DNA of 56,283 nt from Candidatus Colwellbacteria bacterium. GTDB taxonomy: Bacteria; Patescibacteriota; Minisyncoccia; UBA6257; Colwellbacteraceae. Shown in pieces: positions 14,840-50,885 of this stretch. The notes under the pieces are model-generated. The model saw only the letters and a program-made list of their open reading frames with translations, was not told the origin of the DNA and searched no databases. Position numbers and translations under genes: made by a program. The DNA lies in NCBI GenBank assembly GCA_016176505.1, contig JACOXB010000007.1, positions 1 to 56,283 of the forward strand. Reading direction: 5' to 3'. Position 1 is the stretch's first letter; each line of letters starts with the position of its first letter.

Positions 14840-15598
14840 AAGACTTCTTAGTGCTGGCGAGTCTTTAGTAGCTAAGATCCGGCGCCCGCTCCTCCGCCCC
14901 AAGCCGTTTTCGATTTCCGGATGCCGCGAGAAATAATCTTCGAGCTTCGCGGCAATAATCGGCCCCTGAGAGACAAGTTTAACTCCTCGAGGAAGTAAAG
15001 ACTTAAATTCTCCTTCAATCAGCGCGTAATGAGTGCAGCCCAAAATAATGCTATCAATCCTAGAAGCTTTTGTAAAAAGCTTATTTAAGTAGCCCCGAAG
15101 CACCGCTTTTAACGCTTCGCCTTCGATCTCGCCAGCCTCAAGCATCGGTACTAAAAGCGGGCAGGCAACACCGTGAACCTTAATCGAGGGGTCAGCTTTC
15201 TTAATTTCTTTTTCATAAGCCCGAGATAAAATCGTGGCCGTGGTCCCGAGCACCCCCACCTCTCCGGTCTTAGTAAAAGTATTAATTTCCTCAGCAGTCG
15301 GAATAATAATTCCGAGGACTTTTTTATCCGGATAAAATCGCGGTAAAAATTCTTGCTGGACTTTCCGAAGAGCGCTCGACGAGGAAGTATTACAAGCGAG
15401 AATTACCAACTCGGCCCCAAAACCGAAAAGAGCTATTACCCCTTCTTTTGTAAATTGATAAATTTCATCTTGATCCCGATCACCGTAAGGAGCCCGGGCG
15501 TTATCACCCAAGTAAATATAAGAATAGCCGGGCAATGACTTGGTTACTTCTTTCAAAACAGTTAGGCCGCCGAAGCCGGAATCAAAAAATCCAATCAC
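14795..15598 (-). CDS. murI: glutamate racemase
   Basis: It has DSGFGGLTV, ACNTSS and GCTHY (the two catalytic Cys motifs). The last 15 codons run into tRNA-Pro on the same strand. Confidence 0.85.
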   Translation of the reverse strand: MIGFFDSGFGGLTVLKEVTKSLPGYSYIYLGDNARAPYGDRDQDEIYQFTKEGVIALFGFGAELVILACNTSSSSALRKVQQEFLPRFYPDKKVLGIIIPTAEEINTFTKTGEVGVLGTTATILSRAYEKEIKKADPSIKVHGVACPLLVPMLEAGEIEGEALKAVLRGYLNKLFTKASRIDSIILGCTHYALIEGEFKSLLPRGVKLVSQGPIIAAKLEDYFSRHPEIENGLGRRSGRRILATKDSPALRSLRGVVYRQYARFGCV

Positions 15599-22820: not shown

Positions 22821-23192
22821 CTAGCTGCCGGTGTGGGCCGAGGCGATGATCTCGATGGTGCTCGCGCTCTCAAGCGCGAGACCGAACGCGATCACGTCGT
22901 CGACCGTGAACGCCGGACCGCCCCAGTGGAGCTCACGCCATGAAGAGGGCTCGAGCTCACGAGGAGCGGGAGCCGCGGTCGCGGGCGACTCCGGCTCGAC
23001 CACGTCCACGCCAGCCGAGACGAGCAAGGACACGATCTTGCGGTCGGCCGGCTTGTCCACGACGTCGGAGCAGGCCGGGCAGGTGAACCGGTATCTGCCT
23101 TCGCGACCGCCATGGATCACCCAGAGCGCAATCGCCTCCGGCCTCATGTCTACCTCGCCACAGCGAGGGCACGTCGACCTGATGGTCGTCAT
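22821..23192 (-). CDS. G5-2: zinc-ribbon protein, unknown function
   Basis: 123 aa with CPRC...CPAC near the N-terminus and a Pro/Ala linker. The ATG is preceded by GAAAGGAGGGAAGCGTA. Confidence 0.7.
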   Translation of the reverse strand: MTTIRSTCPRCGEVDMRPEAIALWVIHGGREGRYRFTCPACSDVVDKPADRKIVSLLVSAGVDVVEPESPATAAPAPRELEPSSWRELHWGGPAFTVDDVIAFGLALESASTIEIIASAHTGS

Positions 23193-23904: not shown

Positions 23905-23999
23905 TAAATAAAGAAAACGGCGAGGAGATCTCGCCGCTTTCTTAAGAGTCTCTCTCCTCTTTATATTTCGATATGTAGCGTACTTGCCTATTCCAGAAT
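23905..23999 (-). ncRNA. candidate small RNA or attenuated leader (promoter-to-terminator unit of about 95 nt without ORF)
   Basis: It lies between the consensus promoter (24006-24034) and the hairpin CGGCGAG-ATCTC-CTCGCCG + TTTTCTTTATTT (minus strand). There is no ATG/GTG/TTG in between. Confidence 0.35.
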
Positions 24000-24005
24000 A
24001 CCCTT

Positions 24006-24034
24006 ATTATACTATATCTCTTATAGCTTGTCAA
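24006..24034 (-). promoter_or_regulatory. consensus sigma70 promoter TTGACA-N17-TATAAT (no adjacent ORF)
   Basis: The minus strand reads TTGACAAGCTATAAGAGATATAGTATAAT. Confidence 0.7.
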
Positions 24035-24084
24035 GCCCCCAAATAGGCCTTATTTAGGGGGTTTTTAGCTTTCTCCTCATCTTT

Positions 24085-24256
24085 GGGGTAAACACATAAA
24101 CGTCGATCGCATCCACTCGCTCCCCAGACACCCTCGGTTTCTGGCGGTCGCCTGACACAGCAGGCGACCTATTTTCCGACACGGGAGGAACCTTATACTT
24201 TCCTCCCGACCCCTCCTTCGGTTTCTGATTTACTCCTACGCATTTTAGGGGTAAAC
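24085..24256 (-). repeat. element E3: structured insert in the 3' end of the GT2 gene, bounded by GTTTACCCC repeats
   Basis: The 9-bp cores are at 24248-24256 and 24085-24093. The inner blocks GGGGTCGG, two hairpins, GCCAGAAACCGAGGGTGTCTGGGGAGCGAGTGGATGCGATCGACG are homologous to E2 (33818-33928). Confidence 0.7.
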
Positions 24257-25716
24257 CAGAAGCCTAGCCGAAATCTCCCCCCTAGCATCAACCGGGTTTG
24301 AGACTCGAGAGCCGGGATAGCGCCGAAAATAATTAAGGTAAAAGGCATTAGGGCCCACTGGATAAGATAAAGGAAGTAGTGGTGGGCGCGAAACCAATCA
24401 GGCTTGGGCGGCAAAAGCACAATGCCCAAGATAGCCGAGCTCACAATTCCAATTGAGGCAAAAGTTAAAATGGTTCGCGTAATCTCCGGTAAGCTGAAAG
24501 AAAGCAGGGTGTAATTAAACGCCTCACCGCCTAAAAAGAGTGGCAGCCAGCCAAGAGCAAAAATTAAAATGGCATTCGTGGCCCAGGAGTGAAAAGCTTC
24601 GATGGTATTGAAAATCCAGTAGATTTTTTTGCTTAAAAGAATTCTCCGGTTTCTCGAAAAGCCATAAAAAGTATAAGGCAGGTTTTCCACGCCCCAGCCC
24701 CAACGGCGCTGTTGGCGATAAATATTCCGCATAGTGCGCCAGAAAGTCGGCGCCACATTCGCATCCATTGAAACCGGGTAGAAAAGCGGCACGACCCGCC
24801 AGTCGCTGTCGTAATGAAGATAGCATTGCCAGAAAATCCGCGAGTCTTCCGAAACCACGTTCTTCTGCCAAAAGCCGATTTCGACCAAGGCTTTGAACGG
24901 CATTGAGTGGGAAGAAAAAGTAGTCAAGCGTTCGGGTCGCGACTGCTGCATCAAGTGCCAAAAAGTAGCTGATAAGGCAACGACCCTCGCAAAAATCGGC
25001 GCTTCATAAATGTTGTTATTAAAAAGCGGCACTGGCTGATAACTTGAGCGCTCGGGATGCTCGGCGGTCAAATATGAATAGGTCAGTCGGCCAAAATAAT
25101 CAGGTAAAATCTGGGTGTCAACATCAAAAACCGAAACCAAAATATTTTCATAAGGAATTTTTAGTTTATCAATAACCTCGCTTTTAACTTTTTCCGCGGC
25201 ATAAGCCTGATTCGAGCCTTTACCCGGGATTTCGTTAGGCAAATCAGCTGGGTGATAGACAACCAGAAAATGGGGGAACTCTCGGCCGAATTCGGCCTCG
25301 ATCCTTCGGGCCACCTCTTTAGTCGACTCGCCGCCCCGCTCTTCGGGCGCAAGCACAATAATGAATTTATCTTTGGGATAATTTATTCGACTGAGGCTCT
25401 CGAAAGTTTCTCTGACCACTTCGTAGGGCTCACCGAGCATCGGCAGAATAACAAGATGGTATATCCGATCCCAATCTACGAATTTATCCGAATGATCCGA
25501 AAGCTGTTTAAGCCAATCGATTTTTAGATTTCTCCTTACTTTTTTGAAAGAGGACCGAAGATGAAATGACAAAAAAAGAGTTTTGAAAAGCCAGTAAGTA
25601 TCGAAAAGAATAATAAAAATAGCTGCAGCAGTTGGGAAAAATCGCGCGGCAACCACCATTAAGACGAGCGTCAGCCAGGAGAGCGCGCCCGGGACAATCT
25701 CAAAAAAACGGAGCAT
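24193..25716 (-). CDS. family 2 glycosyltransferase, processive (cellulose synthase/PgaC-like), multi-TM
   Basis: It has the QRRW motif (YRQQRRWGWG), a DxD-type region, and N- and C-terminal TM helices. The start is set at the ATG overlapping the DoxX stop (TAATG at 25714-25718). The last 16 codons lie inside element E3. Confidence 0.85.
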   Translation of the reverse strand: MLRFFEIVPGALSWLTLVLMVVAARFFPTAAAIFIILFDTYWLFKTLFLSFHLRSSFKKVRRNLKIDWLKQLSDHSDKFVDWDRIYHLVILPMLGEPYEVVRETFESLSRINYPKDKFIIVLAPEERGGESTKEVARRIEAEFGREFPHFLVVYHPADLPNEIPGKGSNQAYAAEKVKSEVIDKLKIPYENILVSVFDVDTQILPDYFGRLTYSYLTAEHPERSSYQPVPLFNNNIYEAPIFARVVALSATFWHLMQQSRPERLTTFSSHSMPFKALVEIGFWQKNVVSEDSRIFWQCYLHYDSDWRVVPLFYPVSMDANVAPTFWRTMRNIYRQQRRWGWGVENLPYTFYGFSRNRRILLSKKIYWIFNTIEAFHSWATNAILIFALGWLPLFLGGEAFNYTLLSFSLPEITRTILTFASIGIVSSAILGIVLLPPKPDWFRAHHYFLYLIQWALMPFTLIIFGAIPALESQTRLMLGGRFRLGFWFTPKMRRSKSETEGGVGRKV

Positions 25717-26123
25717 TAGAAGTAAAGGAAGGGCCAGAGATAATCGACGGCGTAGATGCCACCGCCCGAAGTGGCGAGAACAAAAGCGAGAAAGGCTAGG
25801 GCGAAGTCGAGCTCGTAGCCACTGACAAAAGGCTGATTCTTGGAAATTTTCCAAAGTCCGGCCACCACCATTTCAATGGCGATGAAGAGGGCCACCGGCT
25901 GAACTAGGAAACCGAAAATCAAAGCAATACCGCCGAAGAATTCGAGGAGGGCCACAATCGTGCCCCAGAACATTCCTGGCCGAAAACCCATGCCGTCGAA
26001 GTTCGAAGCATTAGTCTTTAAATTCTTAATCTTTGGCCAGCCATGAACCAAAAAGAGGATGCCGAGAAAAACCCGGGCGAGAAATAGAGCGGTACCGTTC
26101 CAAGCGAATAAGACAGGAATCAT
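25716..26123 (-). CDS. DoxX family membrane protein
   Basis: 135 aa with 4 TM helices and a typical DoxX N-terminus (LARVFLGILFLVHGWPKI). Confidence 0.8.
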   Translation of the reverse strand: MIPVLFAWNGTALFLARVFLGILFLVHGWPKIKNLKTNASNFDGMGFRPGMFWGTIVALLEFFGGIALIFGFLVQPVALFIAIEMVVAGLWKISKNQPFVSGYELDFALAFLAFVLATSGGGIYAVDYLWPFLYF

Positions 26124-33665: not shown

Positions 33666-33748
33666 GGAGGAGTCGCATAGCGGTATTGCAACGGATTGCT
33701 AATCCGTGGGGAGTAATCCCCTCGTGGGTTCGAATCCCACCTCCTCCG
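33666..33748 (+). tRNA. tRNA-Ser (GCT)
   Basis: GGAGGAGTCGCATAGCGGTATTGCAACGGATTGCTAATCCGTGGGGAGTAATCCCCTCGTGGGTTCGAATCCCACCTCCTCCG. It has a long variable arm. Confidence 0.9.
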
Positions 33749-33946
33749 CTAATACAAATTAAGCATGCCTGTGTGGTATGCTGAATTTGTATTTGGTTGG
33801 ATTCGAACGAGGGGTGGGTCGGAGGGGAAACCACCGGGTCCCCTCCGTCGAGGAAAACAGGGAGCCTGCCGTGCCAGGCTCCCGCCAGAAACCGAGGGTG
33901 TCTGGGGAGCGAGTGAATACGAGCGACGTTCAATCCCACCTCCTCC
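33749..33946 (+). repeat. element E2: structured insert plus second copy of the tRNA-Ser 3' end
   Basis: AATCCCACCTCCTCC occurs at 33733-33747 and again at 33932-33946. The insert has TTGTATTTGG + GGTTGGATTCGAAC (13/14 inverted copy of the tRNA T-arm), GGGTCGG, three hairpins and GGGAGCGAGTGAATACGAGCGACG. Confidence 0.7.
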
Positions 33947-34034
33947 ACCCGAAATACTTTTTATCGGAAGACCCGAGTGCCTAGGTATAGGGTACGACCT
34001 CAAGCCACCAAACCCCTTAACAGGAAGTGCATCC

Positions 34035-47452: not shown

Positions 47453-48352
47453 TCAATTAAACCCCAATCTAACTAAATTTCTCTTTTCGCGAGATAGGGC
47501 CTCTTTGGTTTTGGCGGCCAAGTTAAGCCGCAAACCGGGTTCGGTTTCGGCGCGCCGCAAATTAAGCCAAAAATCTTTACCCGTAACGCTTATGTCGTCC
47601 AGTTTTGAAATTCTTCCCCTGCCCTGGTAAAATTTCTCGACTCGAGCAAGGGTCCGGGTTTTATCTTTAACCCGGAATGTCTTTTCGCGAATTCGATAGT
47701 AATTGGGCAATTCCCTACGCCATTCTGAAAGCGAAATCCCTCTTTTCTTCAGACGACTGACTTCATTTAAAACAAAAACGGCAGCGAGAATCCCGGAATC
47801 AGCATGGTAAAAATCCTTAAAGTAATAGTGGGAGGCATGTTCAATTGCGAATTCGGCCCGATGGCGCAACATCATTTTTTTAACCGCATAGTGACCAGAT
47901 TCAGTTTCAATAACTTTCAGCCCTTGCTTTAACCAATCAATTACTGCCTTACCGGCTGAGGTTGAAACAAGATACGGCGGTCGAAACTTTGGCGAGAGAA
48001 GTAGAAAAATTAAAATCGGGTCAATTTCCTTGCCCTTATCATCAACAAAAACCGCTCGGTCGCCGTCAGCATCAAAAACCACCCCCAAATCAGCTTTTTC
48101 TTTAACTACCGTCTCTTTTAATTGTCTTGTCGCGCCGCGGGCTAAGGGACTCGGACCATGAGCCGGAAAATTGCCATCAGGTTTTTCGTTGATAAAAGTT
48201 GTTTTTAGTTTTTTGTTATTAGTTATAAGTTGTCGCAAGATGCGGCCGGTGGTGCCGTTTGAGCAATCAAAAATTACCTTGACTGGTGCTTCCGGTTTTA
48301 AAAACTTTTTTAAGAAATTTACATAAACCCTTACGTACGAGTTACTAGTCAT
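47453..48352 (-). CDS. phosphomannomutase/phosphoglucomutase, domains II-IV only (downstream half of a split gene)
   Basis: 299 aa with the metal-binding loop FDADGDR. There is no SD, and the ATG follows TAA TAA CTG in frame after the N-terminal fragment. Confidence 0.75.
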   Translation of the reverse strand: MTSNSYVRVYVNFLKKFLKPEAPVKVIFDCSNGTTGRILRQLITNNKKLKTTFINEKPDGNFPAHGPSPLARGATRQLKETVVKEKADLGVVFDADGDRAVFVDDKGKEIDPILIFLLLSPKFRPPYLVSTSAGKAVIDWLKQGLKVIETESGHYAVKKMMLRHRAEFAIEHASHYYFKDFYHADSGILAAVFVLNEVSRLKKRGISLSEWRRELPNYYRIREKTFRVKDKTRTLARVEKFYQGRGRISKLDDISVTGKDFWLNLRRAETEPGLRLNLAAKTKEALSREKRNLVRLGFN

Positions 48353-48358
48353 CAGTTA

Positions 48359-48736
48359 TTAGTTATTAGTTAGCGCTTGCTCAATTTCGTCTCCACTGAT
48401 TGGTACCGCCTTAGGCCCGGCCACTTTCAAACCATTCCATTCTTTAGGATTATGCGAAGCTGTGACCATAATCCCGCCGCCGGCTTTTAACTTATTAACC
48501 AGAAAATAAAGCATTGGTGTCGTAATCATCCCTGCCCTAATAGCCCTTGAACCCAGAACCTTGAGACACGCCCTATATAAGGCTGGCGAGCTTTTGCGGG
48601 CATCATGGCCAACCACGATTTTCCCCTTTTCTAAAATTTCTCGGCTCAAGCCGCTTATAATTTTCTGGGTTATGACCTCGTTAATTTCACCTGGATAGCG
48701 GCCCCGAATATCATAAGCGCCAAAAATGTCTCGCAT
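48359..48736 (-). CDS. phosphomannomutase/phosphoglucomutase, domain I only (upstream half of a split gene)
   Basis: The start is set at MRDIFGAYDIRG. It has the catalytic phosphoserine loop TASHNP and ends at TAA TAA inside an ACTAATA-type heptamer repeat. Confidence 0.75.
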   Translation of the reverse strand: MRDIFGAYDIRGRYPGEINEVITQKIISGLSREILEKGKIVVGHDARKSSPALYRACLKVLGSRAIRAGMITTPMLYFLVNKLKAGGGIMVTASHNPKEWNGLKVAGPKAVPISGDEIEQALTNN

Positions 48737-48749
48737 TAAAGTTATTGTA

Positions 48750-48787
48750 ACCCCCACGCCTAATTGCTCGCAATTAGGTGTGGGGGT
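48750..48787. promoter_or_regulatory. 18-bp inverted repeat in the 64-bp divergent pmm/ftsK intergenic region
   Basis: ACCCCCACGCCTAATTGC TC GCAATTAGGTGTGGGGGT (17/18 complementary). Confidence 0.5.
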
Positions 48788-48800
48788 AAAATTAAGCTGA

Positions 48801-50885
48801 ATGGCCAAGAGAAAGCGCCGCCGAAAAGGAGGGAGACCGCAAAAAAATAATCCCAAAGTCAGGTCCTCGCTTCATCCGGGTATCAGGACCAGCGTCTTTG
48901 GCATTATTGCTTTAGGTTTTGCAGTCATTTTTATGCTGGCCGGTTTTGCCAAGGCCGGGCCAGCGGGTGAAATTATTTTTAACCTCCTTGATCGACTCCT
49001 CGGCTGGGGTTATTTCTCTGTACCGCTTGTTCTCGTCTTAATCGGCATGGGCCTCTTGACTCATCCGGAGCGAGCCGTCATCAGTTCCTCGCTTATCGGC
49101 GCTGTTATCTTTATTAGTGCCGGTCTTAGTATGATTGATATTCTCGCGCCAGAGAAAGCCGGTTCGGCCGGTATTCTTTTCGGTAATATTGAAAATCTTC
49201 TTGGCTATGCTGGCTCGTTTGTTTTCGATCTAATGATTCTTTTAGCCTCTCTCTTGGTTGTGCTTAATATCCCTCTGACCTTAAAAATAAAGTGGCCAAA
49301 GCGAGAAAAAGGAGTTACGCCTCCTGCTAAAGAAGAAAAACTAGTGATTACGCCAGAGCCGACCCTAGAAATTCCGACCGAGGAAGAAACACTGACTAAA
49401 GAAGAAGCGAAAATAACAAAAACCACCGAAACTCCTGCGCTGGTGTCTACTGGCGAGTCAATAATTAAGACTCGCCATTACACTCCGCCGCCTTTAGGTC
49501 TTTTGAAAACCGCGACTGAAAAACCAACAGCCGGCGACCTCCGGGTTAATGCCACCACGATTAAACGAACTCTTGAAAGTTTCGGCATCCCGGTTGAGAT
49601 GGGCGAAATTACGATCGGCCCCAAAGTCACTCGTTATGCCCTGAAGCCGGCTGAAGGAATTAAGCTTTCGCGGATTCTTGCCTTGAACCAGGATTTGAGT
49701 CTGGCCTTGGCGGCTCATCCGATCCGAATTGAAGCGCCAATCCCCGGCCGAGCCTTAGTCGGCATTGAAATTCCGAATAAAGTAGCCAGCCTCGTCCGGC
49801 TCGGAGCTTTACTCGGTTATCCCGAGTTTAAAAAAACAAGTAATCTCGGTTTTCCCCTTGGCCGCGATGTTTCGGGCGAACCAATTTTTGTAAGCCTTAG
49901 TAAAATGCCTCATCTTTTAGTCGCCGGTTCAACTGGCAGCGGCAAGTCCATTGCCATCCATTCACTCCTTATTTCTCTCTTATATAAAAACTCGCCCGAA
50001 ACTCTCCGTCTGATCTTGATTGATCCTAAGAGAGTCGAGCTCTCGGTTTACGAGGATATCCCTCATCTTTTGACACCCGTCATCACGAACGGCAAAAAAG
50101 CGATCGCCGCTCTCCGCTTCGCCATTCAAGAAATGGAGAATCGCTACGAACTTCTGCTTAAGGCTGGCAAGCGCGATATCCTGGGTTACAATCTCGGCCG
50201 GCAAAAAGATTTTATGCCCTACCTAGTTATTGTGATTGATGAACTAGCTGATTTAATGGCTGCTTTTGGCCGGGAAATCGAGGCCTCCGTAGTCCGTTTG
50301 GCTCAGATGGCTCGCGCCACCGGCATCCATCTCGTTGTTTCAACTCAACGGCCATCGGTTGAAGTTATTACTGGTCTAATTAAGGCGAACATTACCTCGA
50401 GGGTGGCACTTCAGGTGGCGAGCCAGGTTGATTCCCGCACCATTCTTGACACTGGCGGGGCCGATAAACTCTTGGGCGGCGGGGACATGCTTTTTATCTC
50501 AGCCGAGCTTTCAAAACCTAAACGAATTCAGGGCGGCTATATTGGCGAGGATGAGATTAATGCGGTCACTGGCTTTATTAGAAAAGAAAATCCGATCGAA
50601 GAAGAAGAGGCCGAACTGGAAATGCAGTTATCCCGAGGACTGGAAGGCGCGCCCGGCGCTCATTGGGAAGCTGATTTTAACGAAGAAATTGATGATGAAC
50701 TTTATGAAGACGCGCTTCAAGTTGTAAGAGAAGCTAAAAAAGCCTCAGCCTCGCTTCTCCAGCGACGCTTAAAAATCGGCTACGCCAGGGCCGCGAGACT
50801 GCTTGATATAATGGAGGAGCAGGGCTTAATCGGCCCGGCTCGCGGAGCCCTGCCCCGGGAAATTTTCTCAAAAAACGAGGAGTGA
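48801..50885 (+). CDS. ftsK: DNA translocase FtsK
   Basis: 694 aa with a basic N-terminus, 4 TM helices, a linker, a motor domain with Walker A (GSTGSGKS) and a C-terminal gamma wHTH. Confidence 0.9.
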   Translation: MAKRKRRRKGGRPQKNNPKVRSSLHPGIRTSVFGIIALGFAVIFMLAGFAKAGPAGEIIFNLLDRLLGWGYFSVPLVLVLIGMGLLTHPERAVISSSLIGAVIFISAGLSMIDILAPEKAGSAGILFGNIENLLGYAGSFVFDLMILLASLLVVLNIPLTLKIKWPKREKGVTPPAKEEKLVITPEPTLEIPTEEETLTKEEAKITKTTETPALVSTGESIIKTRHYTPPPLGLLKTATEKPTAGDLRVNATTIKRTLESFGIPVEMGEITIGPKVTRYALKPAEGIKLSRILALNQDLSLALAAHPIRIEAPIPGRALVGIEIPNKVASLVRLGALLGYPEFKKTSNLGFPLGRDVSGEPIFVSLSKMPHLLVAGSTGSGKSIAIHSLLISLLYKNSPETLRLILIDPKRVELSVYEDIPHLLTPVITNGKKAIAALRFAIQEMENRYELLLKAGKRDILGYNLGRQKDFMPYLVIVIDELADLMAAFGREIEASVVRLAQMARATGIHLVVSTQRPSVEVITGLIKANITSRVALQVASQVDSRTILDTGGADKLLGGGDMLFISAELSKPKRIQGGYIGEDEINAVTGFIRKENPIEEEEAELEMQLSRGLEGAPGAHWEADFNEEIDDELYEDALQVVREAKKASASLLQRRLKIGYARAARLLDIMEEQGLIGPARGALPREIFSKNEE

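Follow-up and report, generated by a model that had tools for sequence, protein, structure and literature searches.

The 56,283-nt contig JACOXB010000007.1 of a Candidatus Colwellbacteria bacterium (assembly GCA_016176505.1; "the window" below means this whole stretch) carries three related elements, E1, E2 and E3. They belong to a family of gene-less, folded insertion elements of 110–190 bases, which stand at the 3' ends of tRNA genes, transfer-messenger RNA (tmRNA) genes and conserved protein genes. The family comprises at least 60 distinct copies and is confined to contigs of the Patescibacteria or candidate phyla radiation (CPR) type. E3 (24,054–24,264, minus strand) was studied most closely and is read together with the 3' end of its host gene, which encodes a family-2 glycosyltransferase (GT2). 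With about even confidence, we propose that E3 is a site-specific integrative mini-element without an open reading frame (ORF), non-autonomous, which would bring a replacement gene end and be moved in trans.

E3 duplicates the end of a glycosyltransferase gene

The host gene (24,193–25,854, minus strand; Glyco_trans_2_3, PF13632) has 6204 homologues. Its ORF ends ...GFWFTPKMRRSKSETEGGVGRKV, with the TAA stop at 24,195–24,193, and its present last 13 codons, SKSETEGGVGRKV followed by the stop, are the translation of an antisense segment and of the scaffold start. Reading along the minus strand, the proximal copy of the target, X (GGCTTCTGGTTTACCCCTAAAATGCGTAGGAG, 24,233–24,264), is the functional gene end and includes the first copy of a 9-bp core, GTTTACCCC (24,248–24,256). 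It is followed by anti-X (GTAAATCAGAAACC, 24,220–24,233), which is antisense to the left part of X and complementary to GGCTTCTGGTTTAC at 12 of 14 positions. The conserved scaffold (24,101–24,219; cmsearch 44.2 bits, E = 2.5e-12) starts after anti-X with the linker GAAGGA and contains the GGGGTCGGG motif (24,205–24,213), hairpin P2 (24,183–24,207), hairpin P3 (24,146–24,169), which is optional across the family, hairpin P4 (24,124–24,144) and the 3' motif GGGAGCGAGTGGATGCGATCGACG (24,101–24,124), a small hairpin with tandem G.A pairs. The distal gene-end copy, X' (24,054–24,100), would encode FTPKMRRKLKTP and a stop; it consists, in order, of TTTATGT (a left edge of element type), the second copy of the core GTTTACCCC (24,085–24,093), AAAGATGAGGAG and the native tail AAAGCTAAAAACCCCCTAA.

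About 150 nt downstream, positions 24,098–24,054 translate to YVFTPKMRRKLKTP and a stop. The five codons after GTTTACCCC that X and X' have in common differ only synonymously (CCT/CCA, AAA/AAG, CGT/AGG, AGG/AGA). GTTTACCCC occurs at exactly two sites in the window against a chance expectation of 0.44, and two or more matches arose in 5 of 100 shuffles; the 9-mer core by itself is therefore weak evidence. With the in-frame identity over 7 residues and the family context, chance is negligible as an explanation of the E3 duplication. A preliminary description of the locus had reported the GT2 end, the second copy and the synonymous codons, and all of these read on the minus strand as it gave them. 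The att-type signature it proposed is present as the duplicated gene end, and E3 encodes nothing, in keeping with its remark that the insert is too small for a recombinase.

The tail of X' (AAGCTAAAAACCCCCTAA) is orthologous to the GT2 gene tails in L041 and L092, the two closest relatives, and the downstream piece thus belongs to the original gene. Directly 3' of X', and overlapping its stop codon, the G+C-rich hairpin of the preliminary description is present in the sequence (about 24,037–24,064, minus strand), but a simple terminator scan did not call it a canonical terminator. In its original state the GT2 transcript probably ended in this hairpin.

E3 folds into the predicted hairpins (z = -2.87 against shuffles), and X and anti-X form a further hairpin with the PKMRR codons as its loop. 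X/anti-X hairpins with compensatory changes were also seen in L041, L042, L046 and L092. The inverted copy at the start of E3 had been described over 11 nt: GTAAATCAGAA is indeed TTCTGATTTAC in reverse complement, and TTCTGATTTAC agrees with TTCTGGTTTAC at 10 of 11 positions. The match extends further, to 12 of 14 positions (GGTTTCTGATTTAC versus GGCTTCTGGTTTAC). What had been missed is that the element constantly includes this antisense segment, matched to its target.

Directly downstream of E3 lies a candidate small RNA gene without an Rfam match (23,915–24,034, minus strand). Its candidate promoter is of perfect sigma-70 form (TTGACA, 17 nt, TATAAT; 24,034–24,006), the unit is about 80 nt long, and the candidate terminator is strong (CGGCGAGATCTCCTCGCCG then TTTTCTT; 23,936–23,918). 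Promoter, body and terminator are all kept in L041 and L092.

E1 and E2 share the scaffold of E3

The other two elements of the window follow tRNA genes on the plus strand, so that 2 of its 11 tRNAs are occupied. E1, of the short type (17,225–17,350; 136.4 bits, E = 4.7e-45), stands after tRNA-Arg(tcg) (17,133–17,205) and consists of anti-X GGAGGGATTCGAAC (17,225–17,238), scaffold up to 17,324 and X' CGAGATTCCCTCCGGGCGCGCTAAAT (17,325–17,350). E2, of the long type (33,750–33,951; 62.2 bits, E = 1e-18), stands after tRNA-Ser(gct) (33,666–33,749) and consists of a terminator-like spacer hairpin, anti-X GGTTGGATTCGAAC (33,785–33,798), scaffold to 33,928 and X' TTCAATCCCACCTCCTCCACC (33,929–33,949). 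The homology of E3 to both, already proposed, holds: the 30-mer GCCAGAAACCGAGGGTGTCTGGGGAGCGAG is identical in E3 and E2 (33,884–33,913), with two matches in none of 100 shuffles, and E1 has the GGGGTCGGG motif and the 3' motif in common with E3. The same is true of the compensatory hairpins, GGGAGGAA/TTCCTCCC in E3 versus GGAGGGG/CCCCTCC in E2 and GGTCGCCTG/CAGGCGACC versus GGGAGCCTG/CAGGCTCCC.

A widespread family with one layout

We scanned one genome per GTDB species for GGGAGCGARTGRANNNGANCGACG and obtained 40 loci. CPR-type contigs accounted for 26 of these, all with the full layout; the other 14 were chance coding-sequence matches in high-GC genomes. The 26 came from Colwellbacteria, Jorgensenbacteria, Liptonbacteria, Paceibacterota, Saccharibacteria, Microgenomatus and Patescibacteria, and include contigs of three metagenome-assembled genomes (MAGs) labelled "bacterium" (two) or Oligoflexia. 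A metagenome scan added about 37 further copies, and IMG/VR viral contigs gave a single match, a chance one in a high-GC coding region. A covariance model, as the preliminary description had suggested, was built from 14 copies, and the hairpins covary strongly; its search of the collected sequences returned 81 copies, 60 of them distinct, among them E1 (136 bits), E2 (62 bits) and E3 (44 bits).

The hosts are tRNA-Leu (gag, tag, cag, taa), tRNA-Ser (gct, gga), tRNA-Arg (tcg, tct) and the tRNAs for Pro, Asp, Met, Tyr, Gln, Glu, Thr and Lys, tmRNA (three times, with a tmRNA-linked copy in Saccharibacteria), and the ends of rplK, rpmG, GT2 and further coding genes. Every full copy lies on the sense strand of the host gene, directly at its 3' end. 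The layout begins with X, the last 16–95 nt of the host gene plus 2–5 nt, and continues with a terminator-like hairpin, usual in tRNA-linked copies, and anti-X, 10–21 nt that are the reverse complement of the left part of X and start exactly at G53 in tRNAs. Then follow a purine-rich linker, GRAARGGGGTCGGG, hairpin P2 and the junction GUNNNGGAR, the variable and optional hairpin P3, hairpin P4 (AAACCGRKGGKUU), the 3' motif GGGAGCGARUGRAKAYGAGCGAC(G) and X', a second sense copy of the gene end that abuts the 3' motif exactly. The scaffold thus comprises three or four hairpins in 90–150 nt and ends GGGAGCGARTGRAKAYGAGCGACG. Nearly every copy has an anti-X that is complementary to its host gene end; in 36 of 45 copies anti-X is a better partner of X than of X' (median complementarity 13 versus 8).

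Other scaffold types were found between anti-X and X' in the same layout: a "scaffold B" rich in GC after tRNA-Pro (L001, 4250–4410), a compact scaffold after tRNA-Phe that ends GGGAGCG|GGATTCC (L028, 1897–2075) and a variant in which a GTTGTTAACAAATTACACGG hairpin takes the place of the 5' half (L081, 2620–2760). The architecture is therefore broader than the modelled family. Many GT2 proteins in databases, among them P0129, P0137, P0169, P0115, P0119 and P0004, have C-terminal tails such as ...RYPETGKGSGKR or ...KGVGEKR. Both kinds of tail are translated anti-X plus the GGGGTCGGGG motif; they are annotation artefacts of the element and could serve as its marker at the protein level.

The sense strand is the folding strand

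Among the 60 distinct sequences, standard pairs filled 94.4% of cells, compared with 80.4% in shuffled alignments and 35–52% with slid partners, in an alignment that was fitted to the model structure and so leans towards it. Both sides change in 21 of 28 pairs, and the observed measures were reached by none of 500 shuffles. The same hairpins emerged from an independent RNAalifold prediction on the 14 copies aligned with MAFFT. The hairpin of the 3' motif is built of G-C, C-G, tandem G.A/A.G, R-Y and U-A pairs; its R-Y pair covaries (GC 27, AU 22), and L090 has G-C pairs where the other copies have tandem G.A pairs. Within stems, G:T combinations (53) far outnumber A:C combinations (11), which identifies the sense strand as the folding strand. 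A fold of the sense strand fits RNA or top-strand DNA and not a double-stranded protein-binding site, so that a plain double-stranded attP is unlikely. Because terminator-like hairpins stand between tRNA and scaffold, RNA and single-stranded DNA are indistinguishable here, and the strict sense orientation would follow just as well from the need to supply a gene end.

Occupied, empty and decayed sites

The earlier claim of an insertion was borne out by comparison of host genes. Most GT2 homologues end ...TPKxR and stop with nothing after it: 50 of 120 C-termini stop right at ...GFW[VF]TPKxR, most stop at or just after the motif, and L044 is a clean empty GT2 site. Among about 89 tRNA loci examined in CPR sequences, 44 were empty, and a lone anti-X next to a tRNA was essentially never seen. 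The GT2 end is occupied in several lineages at slightly shifted positions (E3, L042, L047, L055, L086/L088, L090, L091 and L072), and decayed copies lie in the GT2 coding sequence of L041, L046 and L092. In L041 and L092, X and anti-X (GGCTTCTGGTTTAC...GGTAAATCAGAAGCC) survive, and next to them stands an orthologue of the window tail after X'; L046 also retains GGAGTGGGA, a remnant of GGGGTCGGG.

Tandem arrays with three gene-end copies follow tRNA-Pro (L001, L081), some with other scaffold types; the array at L080 follows a tRNA-like gene end that ARAGORN did not call. Near-identical scaffolds stand at different tRNAs on contigs of one MAG (L015, L034), which indicates that targets are switched faster than scaffolds diverge. 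Between two diverged GT2 hosts, identity is about 60–70% ahead of the duplicated segment and exceeds 90% from where that segment starts.

The two gene-end copies come from different lineages

In L055, X' comprises 31 codons (FGAFPGLEAQTRLMLGGKFRLGFWVTPKHR...stop), of which the first 22–23 nt are the same as in X; further on it departs from X at many positions, yet each of the two copies encodes a proper GT2 end. At rplK (L071), the two ends read NMGIEVID-stop and (K)AGIEVVD-stop, with the third position changed in nearly every codon, and both C-terminal variants are common among L11 proteins. A diverged X' that still codes is also present in L086, L091, L062, L002, L064, L004 and E3, and frameshifts were found in L016 and L090; in total, about 9–10 of 13 copies at protein genes have a coding-competent X'. 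This synonymous and conservative divergence indicates that X and X' have served as gene ends in different lineages, and hence that one of them was imported horizontally with the scaffold. Since X' is untranslated in place and yet usually keeps frame and stop, the simplest reading makes X' the recently displaced native end and X the import.

The left edge of X' is of element type: TGARAT stands for the T-loop TTCGAAT in many independent tRNA copies, and in E3 TTTATGT stands for CTTCTG and breaks the frame. As these bases are not gene-like, the native junction should lie to their right, inside the identity block (GTTTACCCC in E3). The polarity already proposed for E3, with proximal X imported and distal X' original, is accordingly the one that we favour from these comparisons, on the strength of the coding-competent X' copies and the left edge, and the much closer match of anti-X to X agrees with it; L014 and L081 oppose it. 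The suggested search for an empty GT2 site was less successful: no site ending FTPKMRRKLKTP was found, and the closest relatives (at most 87% identical) keep X and anti-X in the gene. Nor were close empty-site relatives found for L055 (best GT2 relative 80% identical) or L071.

Proposed mechanism

The mobile unit would have three parts: the imported last 16–95 nt of the target gene, with the terminator-like hairpin in tRNA-linked copies; anti-X, 10–21 nt antisense to the left part of the gene end; and the 90–150-nt hairpin scaffold, ending precisely ...GAGCGAC(G). It would recombine with the target gene within a short identity block (GTTTACCCC in E3) at the left end of the duplicated segment. 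The gene would then run on into the imported end and stay functional, and the native end would be displaced downstream against the 3' end of the scaffold, there to decay slowly. The element would act as a folded sense single strand, of top-strand DNA or of RNA, in which anti-X pairs with the gene-end copy and provides a duplex image of the target, a base-pairing guide, or both; such a role would explain the near-identical scaffolds at many genes. The catalyst would be supplied in trans. We infer the movement of the unit, the identity of the imported copy, the crossover position, the single-stranded intermediate and the guide role of anti-X from the arrangements described above.

A single-stranded circle of the order "A - loop - anti-A - body", with A and anti-A folded and one strand exchanged, would yield X - loop - anti-X - body - X'; this derivation takes as its basis the one-strand integration of CTX phage, reportedly described by Val et al. 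in 2005. As a guide, anti-X, directly 5' of the scaffold, would pair with the left part of the target and so fix where the unit begins on the left as well as where it inserts. This model explains L055, where the TPK codons (CGCCGAAAA) make up the segment 5' of the scaffold and, 95 nt upstream, the FGA codons complementary to them (TTTTCGGCG) mark the exact start of the duplication. A change of guide would bring the automatic pick-up of a new gene end. Mobility would predict, for E3, an empty-site junction GGCTTCTGGTTTACCCC-AAAGATGAGGAGAAAGC and an excised or circular junction ...GCGATCGACGTTTATGTGTTTACCCC-TAAAATGCGTAGGAGTAAATCAG; for E1 and E2, the corresponding junctions would be the tRNA 3' end directly followed by CAGCGAACG or CCCGAAATAC.

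A stronger form of the proposal seems to us possible but doubtful. In it, the scaffold would be the core of a recombination system free of protein genes and programmed by base pairing: a folded RNA or single-stranded DNA of about 150 nt would find its target through anti-X, and a housekeeping enzyme encoded in the chromosome or a catalysis of the element's own, similar to reverse splicing, would join it into the gene's 3' end. Such a unit would take along the gene end that stands between the pairing site of the guide and the scaffold, and would thereby retarget itself and spare the host gene.

Several observations weigh against a mobile element with an imported X. Neither an excised form nor a strain-level polymorphism of filled and empty sites was seen. 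The 2.5 kb around each of the 60 copies and the whole 56-kb window are free of genes for recombinases, transposases, reverse transcriptases and TnpB-like proteins, and when the ORFs within 2.5 kb on either side of the 60 copies were clustered, only host genes recurred. The closest GT2 relatives keep X and anti-X without scaffold and X', a remnant that would not be the product of simple att excision. The rise in identity between GT2 hosts falls on the most conserved protein motif, and the X' copies of both loci are also similar. At tRNA-Asp (L014) and tRNA-Pro (L081), the resident 5' acceptor strand fits X and not X'; this mismatch could reflect an older insertion, decay, replacement within a tandem array, or the opposite polarity. 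Anti-X carries the X' variant in L014, L008 and L010. The terminator-like hairpins of the spacer argue against efficient co-transcription of tRNA and scaffold.

Alternative explanations

The acceptor-strand fit at L014 and L081 and the anti-X variant shared with X' in L014, L008 and L010 are what an element of opposite polarity would leave, made of anti-X, scaffold and X' and inserted 3' of an intact native X; its antisense and sense copies of the previous target would then form a two-part guide, one part for each DNA strand, as with the left and right target guides of bridge RNAs, and no part of the gene would be replaced. The tRNA genes are always intact, and the native tail of E3 is in frame after X', as it would be for an insertion exactly after X. 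An X' that was never translated should, however, lose its frame, whereas about 9–10 of 13 keep it with conservative substitutions and often a stop. X' of up to 95 nt goes far beyond the need of a guide, anti-X pairs much better with X than with X', and the 5' strand of the closing helix in L055 would have to fall within the X codons by coincidence. We consider this arrangement unlikely. If the sequences were instead a non-mobile, cis-acting host RNA in 3' trailers, with a role in 3'-end processing, stability or termination, a closing helix obliged to pair with the upstream gene end, and spread by local duplication and gene conversion, the constant sense orientation directly 3' of a gene would be expected, as would the strong conservation of structure across CPR phyla and the long hairpin of anti-X with the gene end. 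Quasi-palindrome correction could keep anti-X matched to X. The sporadic distribution among orthologous genes and tRNAs, the tandem arrays and decayed copies, and the different scaffold types with one layout speak against such a host RNA, and gene-end copies that differ mainly at synonymous sites are not local duplications; we therefore regard it as quite improbable.

A structured, sense-strand scaffold of 90–150 nt with an exact end, followed by a variable target-matching segment, also recalls the guide RNAs of TnpB or Cas12-type effectors (omega-RNA or crRNA-like). X' would then be the 3' guide for an effector encoded elsewhere and would serve homing and retention or repression; Meers et al. 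are said to have described non-autonomous IS200/IS605 derivatives with only ends and guide RNA. We find this very unlikely, given that neither the window nor the surroundings of the 60 copies hold an effector gene, that no Rfam family matches, that IS200/IS605 elements make no long duplication where 16–95 nt are duplicated here, that anti-X would have no role, and that X' is coding-competent and up to 95 nt long. Elements of tyrosine integrases classically show this target spectrum, a duplicated gene end and tandem arrays. For integrase islands at gene 3' ends we refer to Islander (PMC4383910); remnants of such islands (attL plus attR after an internal deletion), or attP-only elements resembling cis-mobilizable elements (CIMEs), would be double-stranded substrates of a tyrosine integrase. 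Hairpin covariation and a G:T bias on the sense strand are not expected of double-stranded arm sites, 60 compact copies share the same boundaries, near-identical scaffolds stand at different targets, and no integrase is nearby. Such an origin appears highly improbable to us.

Some other candidates were tried and rejected. The homing crRNA of a type V-K CRISPR-associated transposon, with a cyanobacterial origin, was discarded as the real matches are all CPR-type contigs and nothing in them appears to resemble a Cas12k repeat. A split T-arm or a tRNA intron in the T-loop does not fit, as anti-X is a true reverse complement, with non-palindromic T-loops in L020 (ACTTGAAC versus GTTCAAGT). A primer-binding site was dismissed as anti-X stops short of the tRNA 3' terminus, and a fold like that of hepatitis delta virus as the region from X to anti-X is variable gene sequence without room for P2/P3. 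L041 and L046 had suggested that the target might be a hairpin already in place; this was set aside as a lone anti-X is essentially never found by tRNAs and L046 keeps a GGGGTCGGG remnant.

Comparison with known systems

As the preliminary description had advised, the window was compared with Rfam 15, including its ribozymes, introns, omega and HEARO RNAs and tracrRNAs; only tRNAs passed, and E1–E3 matched no family. The best sub-threshold match on E3 was RT-9, which scored 20 bits (threshold 46, E = 0.76), and a scan of the whole window at E <= 0.05 gave nothing on E1–E3 except a weak antisense match inside tRNA-Ser. No description of such an element was found in literature searches.

Integration at the 3' end of a conserved gene with restoration of that end is classical logic. 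Genomic islands at tRNA and tmRNA genes, CIMEs and tycheposons resemble the family in their 3'-end integration, the element-borne restoration, the displaced fragment downstream and the tandem accumulation. The direct repeat of the gene 3' end that such elements leave was found, with X and X' in all full copies and the tRNAs intact; no integrase gene was found within 2.5 kb of 60 copies or in the window, and covarying hairpins with a strand bias are not what the arm sites of a double-stranded attP would show. The islands measure kilobases and use their own or a borrowed integrase on a double-stranded attP, whereas the elements described here have 110–190 nt, a covarying scaffold and an antisense copy of the target.

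The sites attP(+) of CTX, used by XerCD, and attC of integrons, used by IntI, are closer in form: one folded strand with inverted segments as the image of a duplex site, structure conserved over sequence, and imperfect stems, for which bulges and tandem G.A pairs are typical. The order of the layout is as predicted for integration of the CTX type, but the stems copy many genes and not one dif site. In those systems the target is fixed (dif, attI) and the tyrosine recombinase known; here target and stem vary with each copy, the scaffold sequence is strongly conserved, and there is no linked IntI or integrase and no GTTRRRY core. The junctions G|TTCGA, G|TTTTCGG, G|AAGCATG and G|TTTATGT differ from GTTRRRY, and no IntI was found near the copies or in the window.

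With IS200/IS605 elements, palindrome-associated transposable elements (PATEs) and omega-RNAs, the family has in common strand-specific single-stranded hairpins, a site choice (here proposed) by base pairing with an internal guide, an exact right end with a target-matching flank, and ORF-less derivatives. Those systems differ in having guides of 4–5 nt, constant end hairpins, TnpA or TnpB in the family and no target duplication; in our copies the left hairpin is target-specific, the duplications are long and no TnpA or TnpB is near. Miniature inverted-repeat transposable elements do not correspond either, as the sole inverted repeat is that of anti-X with the gene end, which is target-specific, and the duplications are 16–95 nt and not short and fixed. 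Guides of bridge RNAs have 4–7 nt and lie in internal loops, the duplicated core is 2 nt, and a DEDD recombinase gene adjoins. The bridge (seek) RNAs of IS110/IS1111, for which we refer to Durrant et al. 2024 (PMC11208160), are likewise structured, reprogrammable non-coding RNAs with a left segment complementary and a right segment identical to the top strand. In the elements described here the guide-like segments have 10–95 nt and flank the scaffold, the duplications are 16–95 nt and not a 2-nt core, and no ORF or recombinase gene is linked.

Mobile introns (group I, group II and IStrons) are also structured RNAs in conserved genes, with an internal guide that pairs with the exon and an exact 3' boundary ending in G. 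A scaffold of 90–150 nt with 3–4 hairpins is far too small for them and matched no Rfam intron family; it comes with a flanking duplication and a replacement copy of the exon, so that no splicing is needed. Diversity-generating retroelements do not account for the copies, as the X/X' differences in L055 and E3 involve all bases and not adenines alone, no reverse transcriptase was found and tRNAs are among the targets. As it falls outside every known family compared, we rate this as a new kind of element, with the proviso that, if an ordinary tyrosine recombinase moves it, it would better be called an extreme, single-strand-folded variant of the att type.

Other features of the window and of GT2 loci

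The window is an ordinary CPR/Patescibacteria chromosome with 11 tRNAs in 56 kb and housekeeping genes (CCA-adding enzyme, RecG, TsaD, a class I aminoacyl-tRNA synthetase, IF-2, RNase Y, ClpB, FtsK, RecA and serine hydroxymethyltransferase), and with no integrase, transposase, reverse transcriptase or TnpB-like gene; GT2 homologues that bear a source name come from Colwellbacteria, Wolfebacteria or Paceibacterota. The E1-bearing tRNA-Arg has a curious neighbour: the mechanical ORF of the CCA-adding enzyme (15,595–17,157, minus strand) overlaps the first 25 nt of the tRNA (17,133–17,205, plus strand), and the true start of the enzyme probably lies further downstream than that of the mechanical ORF. 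Phosphoglucomutase domains II/III (47,453–48,352) and domain I (48,359–48,856) are encoded on the minus strand by adjacent ORFs a few bases apart; 47,453–48,856 is a split or frameshifted gene. Positions 21,242–23,100, about 2 kb, hold only overlapping ORFs without a Pfam match.

At other GT2 loci, small ORFs of selfish appearance cluster around the gene in CPR genomes. In L055 (1–870), the GT2 frame runs in frame through a GxxExxY or PD-(D/E)XK-like segment upstream of the GT2-homologous region, and the contig starts in frame; the same fusion occurs in P0078 and P0081, with PF13366. An ORF resembling the four-helix-bundle "rRNA intervening-sequence protein" follows the fused GT2 (L055, 1090–1300), and in L091 (about 790–920) the element is followed, at a distance of about 240 nt, by a GIY-YIG-like ORF. 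The domain assignments for the ORFs of L055 and L091 were recognised by eye.

Implications

CPR bacteria have tiny genomes with few recognisable mobile elements, and yet several tRNAs are occupied within single 8-kb stretches of related genomes. In the annotation of these genomes, the inserts give rise to tRNA 3' fragments, to false C-terminal extensions such as the ...GVGxK tails of GT2 proteins, and to split or duplicated gene ends. Reprogrammable specificity through base pairing is what made CRISPR, TnpB and bridge RNAs useful, and the near-identical scaffolds at different genes suggest a specificity that is likewise set by base pairing. If the proposed reading is true, this would be the smallest known site-specific integrative element, a mobile element that consists only of a folded strand together with a sense and an antisense copy of its target, and a new way for very small DNA parasites to move while essential genes stay unbroken. 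Should the system prove to be free of protein genes as well, it would represent a new class of guided mobile element specific to reduced CPR genomes.

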